Source: Alphaproteobacteria bacterium (GTDB taxonomy: Bacteria > Pseudomonadota > Alphaproteobacteria > Micavibrionales > UBA2020). From it: 64,000 nt of DNA. The notes under the pieces are model-generated. The model made no database searches and had not been told where the DNA came from. It worked only from the letters and a program-made list of their open reading frames with translations. The translations under genes were made by a program, and so were the position numbers. Where the stretch lies: NCBI GenBank assembly GCA_016794125.1, contig JAEUKT010000002.1, forward strand, positions 1,177,769 to 1,241,768. Reading direction: 5' to 3'. The stretch's first letter is position 1. Every line of letters begins with the position of its first letter. Positions 33,338 to 39,101 of this stretch are shown one piece after another.

Positions 33338-33775
33338 ATGCCGGGTTTCCTTTTAACATGGAATCCCGCGATCGGCGACCAAGGCGACAACTGGTCGGAT
33401 GACGACCTTGTGAAGAAATTAATCTCTCCCTTCCGCCGGAAGGGGGAGATTTTTTTGAACTGGCGCACCGCCGCGCCGCGCAAGATGCAAATCGGCGACC
33501 AAGTGTTTTTGCTGAAACAGGGGCCGCGCCCCAAGGGCATCTTCGGCATCGGCGTTGTGGCAAAGCAGGCCGAACGCGAACCGGATGATCCCGCGCGGTT
33601 CCGCGTGCGTGTGCAGATCATCAAACTGGTGAACCCTGTAAAGGGCGAATTTCTGGCGGGTGAAATGGCGCTGACGGATTTGATCGGCAAATTGCTGGTC
33701 GGCGCGCGCTTTAGCGGCCGGTCTATTCCCGAAGACCGCTTGAAGCGGCTCAATAAATATCTGGCTAAAGGCTGA
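33338..33775 (+). CDS. Standalone EVE/PUA-like domain protein (tentative)
   Basis: FLLTWNP, W, GDQVFLLKQG..KGIFGIGVV pattern recalled from EVE-like domains; not confirmed by search. Confidence 0.55.
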   Translation: MPGFLLTWNPAIGDQGDNWSDDDLVKKLISPFRRKGEIFLNWRTAAPRKMQIGDQVFLLKQGPRPKGIFGIGVVAKQAEREPDDPARFRVRVQIIKLVNPVKGEFLAGEMALTDLIGKLLVGARFSGRSIPEDRLKRLNKYLAKG

Positions 33776-34460
33776 AACTGTCGCCGTGTTTGTGGCGCGT
33801 CACCACGCCGTCTTTCAGCACGGTCACGCGGCCTTTGCCGACGACCTCGTAATTGCCGTTTTTGATCACGACGCCGGTGTCTTCGTCCAATCCGATGCCA
33901 ATCTTGCGGCTGTCGGCGGCGGCTGCGCCGAATAAACGCTTCAGCCGGTGGCGCTGGTTGAAATGCGTGTCGAACACGATATCGGGTGTGAAACTTAATC
34001 CTTCGCCAAGACCCAATCCGCCGGGTTTCAATGCGTTGCGCGGCTCGCCGCCCGTGATCATCAATTGCGACATGGCGGCGGCACCCGCGCTGGTGCCCGC
34101 AATGACCGCGCCTTCGGTTTCACGCGCGGCAAGCGCGGCAAGGAATGCCGTGCCGCCAAAGGCCGCCGACAGTTTTTCCTGATCGCCGCCCGAGAAAAAG
34201 ACGACATCGTAATTTTTGAGCGATGTGACGCTGGCGGGCGCGTCTGCTTCTGCCTTGGTCGTGATATGGCGGATATCGGGCGTGACATTCAGCCGCGCGA
34301 AAGCGTCGCGGTATTTTTCCGCGACTTCTTCGGGATACCCGGTCGCGGTCGTGATGACCAGCACGCGCGGGTTCGCGAGGGCAGATTCCGCCAGCACGCG
34401 CTTCAGCACGGTCATTTCGCCGGTTTTGTCCTCTGCGCCGCCGATGGCAATGATTGTCAT
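33765..34460 (-). CDS. Cyanophycinase-like serine hydrolase (peptidase S51)
   Basis: IAIGGAEDK, FFSGGDQ, nucleophile GTSAGA, DTHFNQRHRLKRL, GIGLDEDT. Confidence 0.88.
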   Translation of the reverse strand: MTIIAIGGAEDKTGEMTVLKRVLAESALANPRVLVITTATGYPEEVAEKYRDAFARLNVTPDIRHITTKAEADAPASVTSLKNYDVVFFSGGDQEKLSAAFGGTAFLAALAARETEGAVIAGTSAGAAAMSQLMITGGEPRNALKPGGLGLGEGLSFTPDIVFDTHFNQRHRLKRLFGAAAADSRKIGIGLDEDTGVVIKNGNYEVVGKGRVTVLKDGVVTRHKHGDSFSL

Positions 34461-34461
34461 G

Positions 34462-35406
34462 TCAGAACCATGTGGTGAAAACATTGATGGCGGGCAGCAG
34501 TTTCGGCTTTACCGCCGGGTCGCGCCCCGCCAGCCACAGATGGCTATCGATATCCTGCGACCGCGCGCCGCTCGCCTTCGCCAATTCATCGGCAGCGGTG
34601 ATCGTCGCCGCGCGTAGGTCGCGCACAACAGAGTCGTTTTCGGCAAAGCCCTGCTTCGATGTCAGTTTTTCGCGCAAATCATCCGACAGTTTCAGCACGC
34701 CCAGCCCCTCCAGCACCTGCGGCAGTACGTAGTCGGATGCCACGGGCGCGTCGGTTACAACCGCCACGCCGCGGTTTTCGGCATGTGCCGCCGTCATCAG
34801 CACGCTCAGGATCGCTTTTTTGCGGAACGGGTCGGCGGCAAAACTTTGCGGGAAGATATCGGCCATCGCGTTGATAAAGGCGAAATCGAAATTGTATTTA
34901 TTATCTTGCGGCTGCCATGCAGCCTTCACCAGTTTATCCAGCGCGGCATAGGCGGCGGGGTCGGCGAATTCGCGGAACATCGCAAGGCGTTCCTGCGCCA
35001 TCGGCGCGTCCTTCAGCAGCGGCGCGATTTTGGCATCTACTTGTGCGGCATCGTGAATGTCGATGCCGGGTATCACGTTGGCAGCGCGTAGCTCGTCCAT
35101 TTTCGCCAGCATCGCGGCTGCGCCCGATCCGTTGATGTTCCATTTCTGCGGTACGCCGTTTGCATCGGGCGTGATAAATCCGCCCTGCTGCGCGCAGATC
35201 AGCGCCATTTCAAACAACACGCGCGTGGCATCGAACGGGTCCTGCTTGGCGGTGTCGCTGATATAATTATTCCAGCTGGGTGCCTTGCCCGCCTGTTTGA
35301 ACGATACCGCCACATCGTGCAGCTTTTCGGCATCAATGGAGACATGGGGCGACGCAGCCACGATATCGCGCGCGTTCTGCATGAACTGTTCAAGGCGGGT
35401 CATCAT
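34462..35406 (-). CDS. Queuosine salvage (DUF2419/Qng1-like) protein, divergent
   Basis: SDYVLPQVLEGLGVLKLSDDL, DLRAATITAADEL, DIDSHLW. Start 35406 after RBS CAGGAG. Confidence 0.7.
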   Translation of the reverse strand: MMTRLEQFMQNARDIVAASPHVSIDAEKLHDVAVSFKQAGKAPSWNNYISDTAKQDPFDATRVLFEMALICAQQGGFITPDANGVPQKWNINGSGAAAMLAKMDELRAANVIPGIDIHDAAQVDAKIAPLLKDAPMAQERLAMFREFADPAAYAALDKLVKAAWQPQDNKYNFDFAFINAMADIFPQSFAADPFRKKAILSVLMTAAHAENRGVAVVTDAPVASDYVLPQVLEGLGVLKLSDDLREKLTSKQGFAENDSVVRDLRAATITAADELAKASGARSQDIDSHLWLAGRDPAVKPKLLPAINVFTTWF

Positions 35407-35462
35407 TTTACTCCTGAGATAACCTATTTTATGGCAATCGCAACAGGAGTCAACCCGGACTA

Positions 35463-36356
35463 TCAGCCTGAAAAGGCTGCGAAATATTGCACCAGATGGT
35501 CGATGAATTTGCGGGTGCGGGCGCTTAAATGACGCTGCGGCACATAGACGGCCTGTATCAGCATCGGTTCTTCCTCGTATTCCTCCAGCAATATTTCCAG
35601 CGCGCCGCTGTTCACATGGTCGCCGACGATGAAACTGGGCAGCACGGTGATGCCGCAATCGCGGAGCGCGGCATCCAGCAGCAGCGATCCGTTATCGCTG
35701 GAAAAACGTCCCGCCACAGGCTGTAAATGTTTGCGCCCGTTGATGCGGTAACCCCAGGCCTTGCCGTCATTCACGCCGCTATAGACCATGCAGTTATGCT
35801 GCGACAGGTCCTGCGGTTTTTCGGGGCGGCCGTGCTGGTTTAAATATGCGGGGCTGGCGACCGTCACGCGCCGGCTTTCCGCCAGTTTGCGCGCAACTAA
35901 TGACGTATTGGCGATATCGCCGATGCGGATCGCAAGGTCAAAATCCTCCTGCGTCAATTCAGCCGCGCGGTCACCAAGATACAGCCGCACGCCGACATCG
36001 GGATATTTATCAAGGAATGACGCGACAGCGGGGCCGAGGAATTTTGTGCCGAAGGTGACCGGCGCGCTGACGCGCACATCGCCGACGGGGTTTTCATTTT
36101 GATAGCGCAGGTTTTCTTCAACTTCGGCCAGTTCGTGGATGATGCGGCGCGCATGGTCGAAGTATTGATAGCCCGCATCTGTCAGCGCCACATGCCGCGT
36201 GGTGCGCTGGAGCAGGCGGGTGCCGAGATAACCTTCCAGATCCTTGATGCGTTTGCTGACCACCGAATTGGCGATGTTCAGCCGCCGTGCGGTTTCTGCG
36301 AAGCTGTTGGTCTCGGCGACCGTCACGAAAGCGAGGATATTGGCCAGTCTGTCCAT
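35463..36356 (-). CDS. LysR family transcriptional regulator
   Basis: SFAETARRLNIANSVVSKRIKDLEGYLGTRLLQRTTR, FDLAIRIG. Confidence 0.97.
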   Translation of the reverse strand: MDRLANILAFVTVAETNSFAETARRLNIANSVVSKRIKDLEGYLGTRLLQRTTRHVALTDAGYQYFDHARRIIHELAEVEENLRYQNENPVGDVRVSAPVTFGTKFLGPAVASFLDKYPDVGVRLYLGDRAAELTQEDFDLAIRIGDIANTSLVARKLAESRRVTVASPAYLNQHGRPEKPQDLSQHNCMVYSGVNDGKAWGYRINGRKHLQPVAGRFSSDNGSLLLDAALRDCGITVLPSFIVGDHVNSGALEILLEEYEEEPMLIQAVYVPQRHLSARTRKFIDHLVQYFAAFSG

Positions 36357-36358
36357 AA

Positions 36359-36389
36359 TTTATATTAGTCGAATAAATCGAAATATAAA
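36359..36389. promoter_or_regulatory. Imperfect inverted repeat, candidate LysR operator
   Basis: TTTATATT..TCGA-ATAAA-TCGA-AATATAAA in the LysR/pirin divergent intergenic region. Confidence 0.45.
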
Positions 36390-36458
36390 TGATAATTTCA
36401 TGATATTCCGCTTTTTAAACGAACAGAATATATTGGTAGATAGAAAGGTTGGTGTAAC

Positions 36459-37163
36459 ATGATGAACATCACAAAATCGAATGATCGTGGAGAAACAGGT
36501 ACTTACTGGCTGCAAAGCTTCCACAGCTTCTCCTTCGGCGAATATTATGATCCTCGCAATATGGGTTTCGGCCCGCTGCGCGTCATCAACGAAGACGTTG
36601 TGCGCGCCGGTACGGGTTTCGACACCCATCCCCATGCGAATATGGAGATCATGACCTATGTCCTCAGCGGTTCGCTGGAGCATAAGGACAGCCTCGGCAA
36701 TGGCGGCATCATCCGCCCCGGCGACGTTCAATTGATGAGCGCGGGGAAAGGGATTCTGCACAGCGAGAAAAACCCGTCGGAGTCTGAAGACGTCCACCTG
36801 CTGCAAATCTGGATCATGCCCAATGTTGCGGGCACGCAGCCGGGTTACCAGCAAACCACGTTCAATCCGGTGGAAATGCAGAATGCGCTGCGGCTGGTCG
36901 TGTCGCCCGATGGCGAAAACGGCTCGCTGGTGATCAAGCAGGATGCAAGGCTCTGGGTTGCGCGGCTGGATGCGGGTGCCGGCGTTTCTCTGGAAATGAA
37001 GCCGGACCGGAAATACTGGTTCCAGATGGCGCGCGGTTCTGCGGAGCTGCTCGGCAAAACGCTGGAGCAGGGCGATGCGCTCGGGCTTGATAATGAACCC
37101 GGCAAGGCGGATATTAAAGCGACCGAAAAATCCGAACTGCTCGTGTTCGAACTGCCCCGTTAA
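36459..37163 (+). CDS. Pirin family protein (YhhW-like)
   Basis: HSFSFGEYYDP, GFDTHPHANMEI, LEHKDSLGNG, QLMSAGKGILHSE. Confidence 0.96.
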   Translation: MMNITKSNDRGETGTYWLQSFHSFSFGEYYDPRNMGFGPLRVINEDVVRAGTGFDTHPHANMEIMTYVLSGSLEHKDSLGNGGIIRPGDVQLMSAGKGILHSEKNPSESEDVHLLQIWIMPNVAGTQPGYQQTTFNPVEMQNALRLVVSPDGENGSLVIKQDARLWVARLDAGAGVSLEMKPDRKYWFQMARGSAELLGKTLEQGDALGLDNEPGKADIKATEKSELLVFELPR

Positions 37164-37178
37164 CAAAGGAAATAAACC

Positions 37179-37763
37179 ATGACCACAAAAACAAAACTCC
37201 TCGTTTTCGCGGGCGCGACGCGTAACGGCTCGTTCAACAAGAAACTCGCAAAACTCGCCGCGCAAGCGGCGGGTGATGCGGGCGCCGATGTGACGCTCGT
37301 CGACCTCAAGGATTACCCGATGCCGCTCTATGACGGCGACGATGAAGGGGCAAGCGGCCTGCCTGCAAAGGCGCTGGAATTCAAGAAGCTGGTGAAGGAG
37401 GCCGACGGTTTCCTGATTGCTTCGCCCGAATACAACAGCAGCTATTCCGGCGTGCTGAAAAACACCATCGACTGGGCCAGCCGCCCGTCGGAAGCGGGCG
37501 AAGGATCCGCCGCCGCATTCGCAGGGAAATACGCAGGCATCATGGCGGCGTCGCCCGGTGCACTGGGCGGGCTGCGCGGGCTCTACGCCTTGCGCGAGTT
37601 GTTGATGAACATCAACGTGACGGTGCTGCCACGCATGCAGGCGGTGGGTGGTGCTGCCGCGGCGTTCAACGATGACGGCACGCTGAAGGACGAAAAATTC
37701 GCCAAGGGCGTGGCGGGCGTGGCACAAGACCTCGTGAAAACCTTGCAGAAACTCAAGGCATAA
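37179..37763 (+). CDS. NADPH-dependent FMN reductase
   Basis: AGATRNGSFNKKL, SPEYNSS..LKNTIDWASR, SPGALGGLRG. Confidence 0.95.
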   Translation: MTTKTKLLVFAGATRNGSFNKKLAKLAAQAAGDAGADVTLVDLKDYPMPLYDGDDEGASGLPAKALEFKKLVKEADGFLIASPEYNSSYSGVLKNTIDWASRPSEAGEGSAAAFAGKYAGIMAASPGALGGLRGLYALRELLMNINVTVLPRMQAVGGAAAAFNDDGTLKDEKFAKGVAGVAQDLVKTLQKLKA

Positions 37764-37775
37764 CGGGGAAAAATT

Positions 37776-39101
37776 TTGAACACCAGACCCACGCTGCTGG
37801 AGGGCGATCCGGGTGCGCATATCAGGCGCCTGACGCTCCCGCTTGCCTGGGGCATGCTGGCGATGACCAGCTTTTCGGTGTTCGACGCGTGGTTTATTTC
37901 GCATCTAGGCACGAAATATCTGGCCGCGATGGGTTTCACGATTCCGGTCGTGATGTTTTTCATGGGCATCGTGTTTGGTACTTCCGTCGGCACGACATCG
38001 GCCATCGCGCGCGTCTATGGCGAAGGCGATTTTGAAAAAGTGCGCCGCATGGCGACCGATGCCTTGAGCCTGACTGTCGTCAGCACCATTAGCGCGTCGA
38101 TCCTTGGCATGCTGTTCATCGACCCCATTTTCCGGCTGATGGGCGCGACGCCGGAGCTGATGCCGCTCATCCACCGTTACATGATGATCTGGTATTGCGG
38201 GTTGCCGTTCCTCGGCCTGTTGATGGTTGGGAACGCCTGCATCCGCGCGACGGGGGATACGCATTTTGTCTCTAAAATGATGACGCTGCTGGCCGTCAGC
38301 AATATTATCCTCGATCCGTTCTTTATCTTTGGCTGGGGGCCGTTTCCGGAATGGAAACTGGCGGGGGCGGCGGCGACGCTGGTCACGTCCTATTACCTCA
38401 CCTGCTGCGTTTCCATGTATTTCCTGATCTTCAAAAAGAAAATCCTGACGCATCCCGTCATTCATCCCGGCCAGCTGAAATCATGGGGGCGTATTTTGCA
38501 CGTGGCGGTGCCGTCCATCGTCAGCAACCAGATCGCGCCCATTTCCGCCGCCATCATCACATGGATGGCGGCGCAGTTCGGCAAGGAAGCGGTGGCCGCG
38601 CTGGGCGTGGCAACGCGTATCGAAAGCATGGCGACGCTGCTGTTTTATTCCATGGGCGCGGCGATCGCCATTTTCGCGGGCCAGAATTACGGCGCGGGCA
38701 ACTACGGCCGCATCCAACAGGGCGTCGCCACGGGTGCTAGATATTCGATGATCTGGGGGCTGTTGCTGGCGGCCACACTGTGGGCGTTTGCGTGGCACAT
38801 CCCGACCTTTTTCGATTCGAACGAAAAAGTGATTGCCTATACCGCGCAATACCTGCACTGGGTGCCGATCAGCTATGGCGCGCTGGGCGTGCTGGTGGTG
38901 TCGAACGCCGCGCTGAACGCGATGGGCAAGCCGCTGCCCGCGACGACGCTGATCCTGCTGAAGACCTTCGTGATTTATGTGCCGCTTGCCTATGTGTTGC
39001 AGGCGAAAATGGGCTTCACCGGTATTCTGGCGGCGCTGGTCGCCACCAATTTCATCCTCGGCATTATCTCGTATTTCTGGAACAAGAAAATCGCATCCTG
39101 A
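37776..39101 (+). CDS. MATE family efflux transporter (TTG start)
   Basis: About 12 hydrophobic segments; LAAMGF, RATGDT, NIILDPFFIFG, QNYGAG. Confidence 0.93.
   Translation: MNTRPTLLEGDPGAHIRRLTLPLAWGMLAMTSFSVFDAWFISHLGTKYLAAMGFTIPVVMFFMGIVFGTSVGTTSAIARVYGEGDFEKVRRMATDALSLTVVSTISASILGMLFIDPIFRLMGATPELMPLIHRYMMIWYCGLPFLGLLMVGNACIRATGDTHFVSKMMTLLAVSNIILDPFFIFGWGPFPEWKLAGAAATLVTSYYLTCCVSMYFLIFKKKILTHPVIHPGQLKSWGRILHVAVPSIVSNQIAPISAAIITWMAAQFGKEAVAALGVATRIESMATLLFYSMGAAIAIFAGQNYGAGNYGRIQQGVATGARYSMIWGLLLAATLWAFAWHIPTFFDSNEKVIAYTAQYLHWVPISYGALGVLVVSNAALNAMGKPLPATTLILLKTFVIYVPLAYVLQAKMGFTGILAALVATNFILGIISYFWNKKIAS

Follow-up and report, generated by a model that had tools for sequence, protein, structure and literature searches.

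Do a queuosine-salvage-like gene and the cyanophycinase-like gene immediately behind it form a functional unit, or do they simply share a place on the chromosome? The question is raised by a stretch of 64,000 nucleotides (the window) from an alphaproteobacterium of the order Micavibrionales (assembly GCA_016794125.1, contig JAEUKT010000002.1), in which gene 1 encodes P0001, a divergent member of the Qng1/DUF2419 family, and gene 2 encodes P0002, a short cyanophycinase of peptidase family S51 (table 1). A preliminary description of this DNA saw in the pair a scavenging unit for prey- or host-derived material. Its coordinates for the two open reading frames (ORFs), both on the minus strand, and for the 1-nt TGAcATG gap between them (34464-34458) are accurate; such a gap is the usual spacing within operons and is not meaningful alone. 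Our findings support another model: we consider it probable that the locus is a two-gene transcription unit of functionally independent scavenging enzymes, joined in a variable slot downstream of a LysR-family regulator gene. The genes adjoin by strain-level juxtaposition and do not make up a conserved functional unit, and what is new here is the divergent Qng1-like subfamily, not the gene pair.

The neighbourhoods of related genes carry this model. Adjacency of a Qng1-like gene and a cyanophycinase gene occurs in 2 of 26 Qng1-like loci, the window and one near relative: among 13 loci from species-representative genomes a cyanophycinase adjoins the Qng1-like gene in L018 only, and none of 12 metagenome loci has one near it. 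The L018 pair, with proteins ~88-90% identical to those of the window, is also that of G011, L018 and G011 being one contig (JAQSWE010000019.1; L045:5414-6341), where an 11-nt deletion at nucleotides 291-301 of the Qng1-like gene, within the invariant GSGAAAM motif, shifts the reading frame; the gene is likely a pseudogene. Closer relatives share a synteny of MatE, FMN reductase-like gene, unknown gene, LysR and Qng1-like gene, followed by Dps, AhpD and IleRS (the LysR match is missing from L016, and the contigs of L015 and L020 are truncated); the Qng1-like gene occurs without a cyanophycinase in at least nine loci that share synteny. Within the genus, the slot after LysR holds the Qng1-like gene only in G007, G009 and G013, the cyanophycinase only in G001, G002, G005, G008 and G012, and both in G000 (the genome of the window) and G011; in some of the cyanophycinase-only genomes the flanking proteins share 92-99% identity with those of the window. 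The most economical history is that the cyanophycinase was inserted behind an older Qng1-like gene, which was then lost repeatedly. In either order, each gene persists without the other.

The promoter after LysR is homologous whether the next gene is Qng1-like or a cyanophycinase, the element TTGAC..ATTGCCATAAAAT preceding the Qng1-like gene in G011 and the cyanophycinase directly in the five genomes that lack the former. The frame of gene 2 is open over 33765-34484; since relatives without gene 1 begin their cyanophycinases, as 231-aa open frames, at the methionine encoded at 34460, we take 33765-34460 to be the translated part. The homologues of P0001 begin at the second ATG, at 35403, which would give 313 aa. 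In the window the two genes are co-oriented and have a promoter in common, and because promoter and ribosome-binding site precede gene 1 while gene 2 has no Shine-Dalgarno sequence upstream of its ATG (none in TGGTTCTGACATG), we infer that they are likely co-transcribed in this strain, with translation of gene 2 coupled by reinitiation. Cyanophycinase-only relatives have GGAG ahead of the same ATG.

What, then, is gene 1? Qng1 (QNG1; DUF2419, PF10343) is a queuosine-5'-monophosphate (Q-5'MP) N-glycosidase of solved structure (7U07, 7UK3, 7ULC, 7UGK; PMC9881137). PF10343 (Q_salvage) matches P0001 at 34.5 bits against a threshold of 25, over the last 90 residues only (224-313), so that the earlier label of queuosine-salvage-like holds for the upstream gene; the NCBIfam models give no match. 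The AlphaFold2 model of P0001, built on the family alignment, reaches a predicted local distance difference test (pLDDT) of 91.5 and a predicted template-modelling score (pTM) of 0.90, and its best Foldseek matches are the Qng1 structures 7u07, 7uk3, 7ulc and 7ugk (template-modelling score, TM, 0.67-0.71; E about 3e-11; ~20% identity over ~345 columns). AGOG-type DNA glycosylases form a second tier, at TM about 0.4. A profile of 60 subfamily representatives, 56 of which match PF10343 and one Pfam AGOG, aligns full-length with Qng1 of Sphaerobacter thermophilus (StQng1; 11-314 versus 9-321, E 4.5e-30), which makes a residue-by-residue comparison with the published active site possible. P0001 is thus a member of an uncharacterised divergent Qng1 subfamily of ~90 clusters at 50% identity: a word-indexed search with P0001 gave 42 clusters, all from uncultured alphaproteobacteria, and an exhaustive profile search gave 91 at E <= 1e-30 with full-length alignment, 376 at <= 1e-10 and 1424 at <= 1e-3. 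Outside the order the subfamily is rare, with weak scores in 3 of 300 other genomes of the class at E <= 1e-25. In a distant clade (L019, L021-L026) no conserved neighbourhood of the Qng1-like gene was found, and the genes around it are unrelated (LprI, a DDAH-like gene, GNAT, homogentisate dioxygenase, M3 peptidase, ShlB, MscS).

Set against StQng1 (residue roles from PMC9881137), the catalytic centre of P0001 is retained. The HhH aspartate and lysine are D225 (StQng1 D231) and K196 (K199), each conserved in no fewer than 58 of the 60 subfamily members, and the D231N mutant chain 7ulc places its N in the D225 column. The residues that recognise the 7-deazaguanine base persist as the aspartate D287 (D298) and the aromatic and aliphatic halves of a sandwich, W291 (W302) and L200 (I203), with D, W/F/Y and L each conserved in 59/60, as do the ribose-stacking F77 (F75) and Y226 (Y232). 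The carboxylate of the C-terminal Y323 belongs to the Qng1 active site (PMC9881137), and every one of the 60 members ends at the aromatic position aligned with Y323 (F in 48, Y in 10; F314 in P0001). The full-length profile alignment further pairs W89 with StQng1 W81. The cyclopentenediol pocket, on the other hand, is not preserved: from P46, W48, H53, Y93, W94 and W299 only the first two are kept (P43 and W45, the latter equal to W48), and the remaining four of six are replaced by small residues, namely H53 by S50, Y93 by A96 (S/A in the subfamily), W94 by A97 (variable) and W299 by S288 (G/A). The hydrogen-bonded triad Y323/E267/H316 is altered jointly, to F314/V261/I307. As for the phosphate ligands, K233 becomes V227 (Q/R in the wider subfamily), Q306 becomes R295, and R80 aligns with N83 or K88 depending on gap placement.

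From these alignments P0001 appears to preserve the chemistry and the guanine-type base recognition of Qng1, with a rebuilt side-chain pocket, and we predict it to be a nucleotide N-glycosidase of the HhH type whose pocket has been remodelled. It would bind, within a closed pocket, a nucleoside 5'-monophosphate with a guanine-like base, probably a 7-deazaguanine, and cleave the N-glycosidic bond with Asp225 as nucleophile or oxocarbenium stabiliser, while Lys196 and the C-terminal carboxylate of Phe314 would position the ribose as in Qng1. Because four cyclopentenediol-pocket residues have given way to small ones, plain Q-5'MP, within reach of the canonical Qng1 of the same genome, is probably not the substrate. 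The canonical enzyme (201 bits over its full length) is encoded on contig 3. Of 36 genomes in the taxonomic family, 34 have a canonical Qng1. The divergent paralog is patchily distributed and almost always comes on top of it: among the 61 genomes sampled, a single one with the paralog (G042) lacks a canonical Qng1. Since the pocket is rebuilt and canonical Qng1 is widespread while the paralog is patchy and additional, a different nucleotide substrate is likely, rather than redundancy. We propose, tentatively, that P0001-type proteins are a distinct Qng1 branch that would act on some nucleotide different from plain Q-5'MP and release its base. Candidate substrates are bulkier or differently substituted 7-deazaguanine nucleotides from digested prey tRNA or DNA: epoxy-Q, glutamyl-Q, glycosyl-Q, preQ-type or other 7-deazaguanine (deoxy)nucleotides.

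The genome around the locus (G000; 3.16 Mb in 4 contigs, 99.95% complete) bears on both genes. It holds tgt (426 bits; L009, G000:C1:1554803-1555948), and queA, queC and YhhQ/Vut_1 were not found in it; because tgt and canonical Qng1 are present and these three are absent, the organism looks like a direct queuine salvager. Its Tgt reads AIGGSLGST at a position where preQ1-type bacterial enzymes have GGLAVGE. Together with the absent queA, queC and YhhQ, this suggests a queuine-accepting Tgt. GluQRS was not found in the genome, the search giving only two ORFs of glutamyl-tRNA synthetase size, below the cut-off, and neither were the IaaA-type Asparaginase_2, IadA or the AstE_AspA domain of CphZ (PF04952). 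The preliminary description had noted that the window contains no cyanophycin synthetase gene, and indeed cphA was found neither there nor elsewhere in the genome. Three relatives contain partial cyanophycin synthetase matches (G003:C69:17137-17976, G013:C7:90331-91239, G014:C3:202357-203181; model positions ~190-480, 205-227 bits, one internal stop each). These could be what is left of cphA, or else a different gene of the ATP-grasp/Mur type.

For P0002, cyanophycinase is the best-supported function as far as the sequence speaks, in line with the earlier assignment. TIGR02069, the NCBIfam cyanophycinase equivalog, matches at 193.9 bits over a cut-off of 126.6 (model positions 1-218 of 250) and Peptidase_S51 at 71.5 bits; solved cyanophycinases match at E 5e-40 (PDB 7uqv) and 7e-27 (3en0), and identity to a solved cyanophycinase is ~45%. 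Like CphB and CphE (MEROPS S51, TIGR02069; 3EN0, 7UQV, 7UQW), P0002 has, in 231-aa numbering, the GGDQ (91), GTSAG (122), DTHF (164), RHRLKRL (170) and DEDT (192) motifs, that is, the GTSAG serine, the DxH histidine, the acidic residue of DEDT and an R-x-R-x-x-R pocket. All five align with catalytic and substrate-binding motifs of the family; for GTSAG, DTHF, RHRLKRL and DEDT these are the counterparts in 3en0 and 7uqv that comprise Ser/His/Glu and the Arg-rich pocket; Ser132 and Glu201 of CphB we take to be the catalytic serine and glutamate. In CphB, His174 and Arg178 bind beta-(Asp-Arg)2 (PMC12661447). The cyanophycinase matches of relatives are either long (model positions 1-250) or short (~195-210 bits), and their public annotation reads 'cyanophycinase'. 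Long forms at 263-282 bits occur in the four genomes that have cphA, and two of these forms are encoded next to it; cphA is lacking where long forms at ~220-245 bits or the short forms, among which P0002 falls, occur. Gene 2 would encode a cytoplasmic cyanophycinase-type serine peptidase that cuts (beta-Asp-Arg)n material acquired from outside, as cyanophycin cannot be made by the cell itself.

The reading that survives best beside ours concerns the same protein: P0002 might be no working cyanophycinase but a truncated S51 peptidase that acts on something else, such as other Asp-containing peptides of prey. It is ~35-45 residues shorter at the C-terminus than the solved enzymes, leaving the last part of the TIGR02069 model uncovered. 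Unlike extracellular CphE it has no signal peptide and cannot reach an extracellular polymer. Its genome holds neither cphA nor IadA, IaaA or CphZ, the known beta-Asp-Arg dipeptidases, and thus accounts neither for a supply of polymer nor for the further use of beta-Asp-Arg. Yet the score stands well above the equivalog cut-off, the identity to a solved cyanophycinase is substantial, the catalytic Ser/His and Arg-rich pocket motifs are intact, and earlier work describes cyanophycinases from genomes that lack cphA, where a dipeptidase usually goes with them (PMC9974463, PMC10206079). We therefore hold this reading to be doubtful. The two-gene cyanophycin-degradation clusters in those papers resemble our locus in their cphA-less genomes and in the tight linkage of a cyanophycinase to a second hydrolase-type gene, but they pair it with CphZ, IaaA or IadA, whereas here the partner is an HhH nucleotide glycosidase homologue and the linkage is unconserved. 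Neither paper mentions a queuosine-salvage-like neighbour of a cyanophycinase. We also considered whether CphZ could be a DUF2419-like protein and dropped the idea, for it is an M14/AstE-type metallopeptidase (PMC9974463).

Could gene 1, in turn, be a redundant second Qng1 isozyme for Q-5'MP? P0001 passes PF10343, keeps all the catalytic, base-binding and ribose-binding residues, and belongs to an organism that depends on queuine salvage. Nonetheless, we find this quite unlikely: besides the low identity to the Qng1 structures, four of the six StQng1 pocket residues are now small, the triad has become F/V/I, and the paralog coexists with a canonical Qng1 almost wherever it was sampled and is still being lost in close relatives.

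Far less room is left for a dedicated unit, in which the S51 enzyme would prepare a queuosine derivative, by deacylation of glutamyl-queuosine for example, for base release by the Q_salvage protein, as the preliminary description had speculated. The tight junction, the single promoter and a second gene without its own Shine-Dalgarno sequence agree with it, as does a queuine-salvaging genome, and the enlarged P0001 pocket could in principle admit a bulkier Q derivative. However, one of the two genomes with the pair carries a frameshifted partner, five close relatives have the cyanophycinase by itself, in all other cases it is the Qng1-like gene that has no partner, and P0002 is a cyanophycinase equivalog that keeps the specific Ser/His/Glu and Arg residues, including those aligned with CphB His174 and Arg178 (PMC12661447), in a genome where GluQRS was not found. 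The deacylation step finds no support, and the unit as a whole we regard as very improbable. Of the scavenging idea, the lifestyle agrees with the gene content, in that tgt is present and queA, queC, YhhQ and cphA are absent; the functional unit falls with the neighbourhood survey, for an unconserved pair is what the preliminary description had itself named as a refutation. Weakest of all, and barely credible, is an AGOG/HhH-type DNA glycosylase acting on damaged or modified DNA bases, for although the Qng1 fold resembles HhH glycosylases, with AGOG 8-oxoguanine glycosylases among the Foldseek matches and one Pfam AGOG match in the subfamily, and Dps and AhpD are syntenic with the Qng1-like gene in the Micavibrio-like clade and would fit such a role, the model is much closer to Qng1 (TM about 0.7) than to AGOG, the pocket of Qng1 is closed round a mononucleotide by a C-terminal aromatic residue and its carboxylate, which all 60 members retain, and Dps and AhpD lie on the opposite strand and their synteny is missing from the distant clade.

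Several points weigh against our own model of two independent scavenging enzymes. The pocket mapping is based on a profile alignment and a predicted model; because K233 is replaced by V227 and the mapping of R80 is uncertain, a 5'-phosphate substrate is not certain for P0001. The true substrate of P0002 could differ from cyanophycin, given ~30 missing C-terminal profile positions and no known dipeptidase partner. Finally, the recurrence of both genes at one promoter slot could reflect shared regulation and a loosely related role, for example in predation. Each enzyme is plausibly a scavenger by itself.

A queuosine salvage enzyme joined to a serine hydrolase is in fact present in this genome, but at the contig-3 locus (table 1). 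There, a half-ABC (ATP-binding cassette) transporter of 646 aa (ABC_membrane and ABC_tran, a transmembrane and a nucleotide-binding domain) and an alpha/beta hydrolase of 274 aa (S33/S9-like) are followed by the canonical Qng1 (328 aa) as the final gene. The order is kept in 7 of 10 sampled relatives, with two tandem hydrolase copies in G006 and three in G013. In a genome without YhhQ, this cluster may serve to take up and process queuine/queuosine.

Table 1. Coordinates of the features discussed; positions are those of the window unless another contig is named.
Feature	Position	Strand	Remarks
Gene 1 (P0001), divergent Qng1/DUF2419-family gene	34462..35406	-	314 aa; PF10343 match
Gene 2 (P0002), short cyanophycinase (S51)	33765..34460	-	231 aa; TIGR02069 match
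TGA-C-ATG stop/start junction of genes 1 and 2	34458..34464	-	read from sequence
Sigma-70-like promoter, TTGACT-N16-TAAAAT	35426..35453	-	10/12 matches; in the 56-nt gap after the LysR stop
AGGAG ribosome-binding site	35411..35415	-	4 nt before the ATG at 35406; read from sequence
LysR-family regulator gene (YafC/AaeR-like)	35463..36356	-	upstream of gene 1, same strand; anchors the conserved synteny
Canonical Qng1 cluster (ABC transporter, alpha/beta hydrolase, Qng1)	G000 contig 3, L077:5496-9240	-	4-nt overlaps

The other neighbours in the window can be described briefly. The LysR gene faces a divergent operon on the plus strand, composed of an unknown gene (36459-37163), an ArsH/FMN-reductase-like gene (37179-37763) and MatE. 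A 514-aa minus-strand ORF at 36360-37904 was rejected as a gene: it has no family match and is 40-49% conserved, against 62-96% for the two plus-strand genes that it overlaps, and is a shadow ORF. We also rejected LysR as an OxyR, which would have made an oxidative-stress island with dps and ahpD, its best NCBIfam matches being YafC/AaeR-type and all below cut-off. On the other side of gene 2, the plus-strand ORF 33338-33775 encodes an EVE domain; it converges with gene 2, whose stop it overlaps by 11 nt at its 3' end. G001, G008 and G012 have the EVE gene, and G002, G005 and G011 do not. A plus-strand hairpin with a 14-bp stem and a following T-run (33421-33451) lies ~90 nt past the dps stop, within the N-terminal part of this ORF. 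The Pfam match begins at residue 47, and EVE may start further downstream, or the hairpin may terminate dps.

Overall, because the pairing is confined to the level of strains, a queuosine-cyanophycin scavenging unit can be set aside. The Micavibrio-like predators hold cytoplasmic cyanophycinases without a synthetase or known dipeptidase, which bears on the extent to which cyanophycin serves as food, and the contig-3 cluster may supply the queuine/queuosine uptake system that the lineage is missing. Beside the canonical Qng1 of these obligate queuine salvagers there almost always stands, where it occurs, a compact, conserved subfamily with an apparently intact catalytic core and a widened or altered pocket. 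If its proposed activity is true, bacteria without de novo synthesis would have a second way into queuine-type salvage, and the queuosine field would gain a concrete candidate for the salvage of other Q vitamers or 7-deazaguanines.

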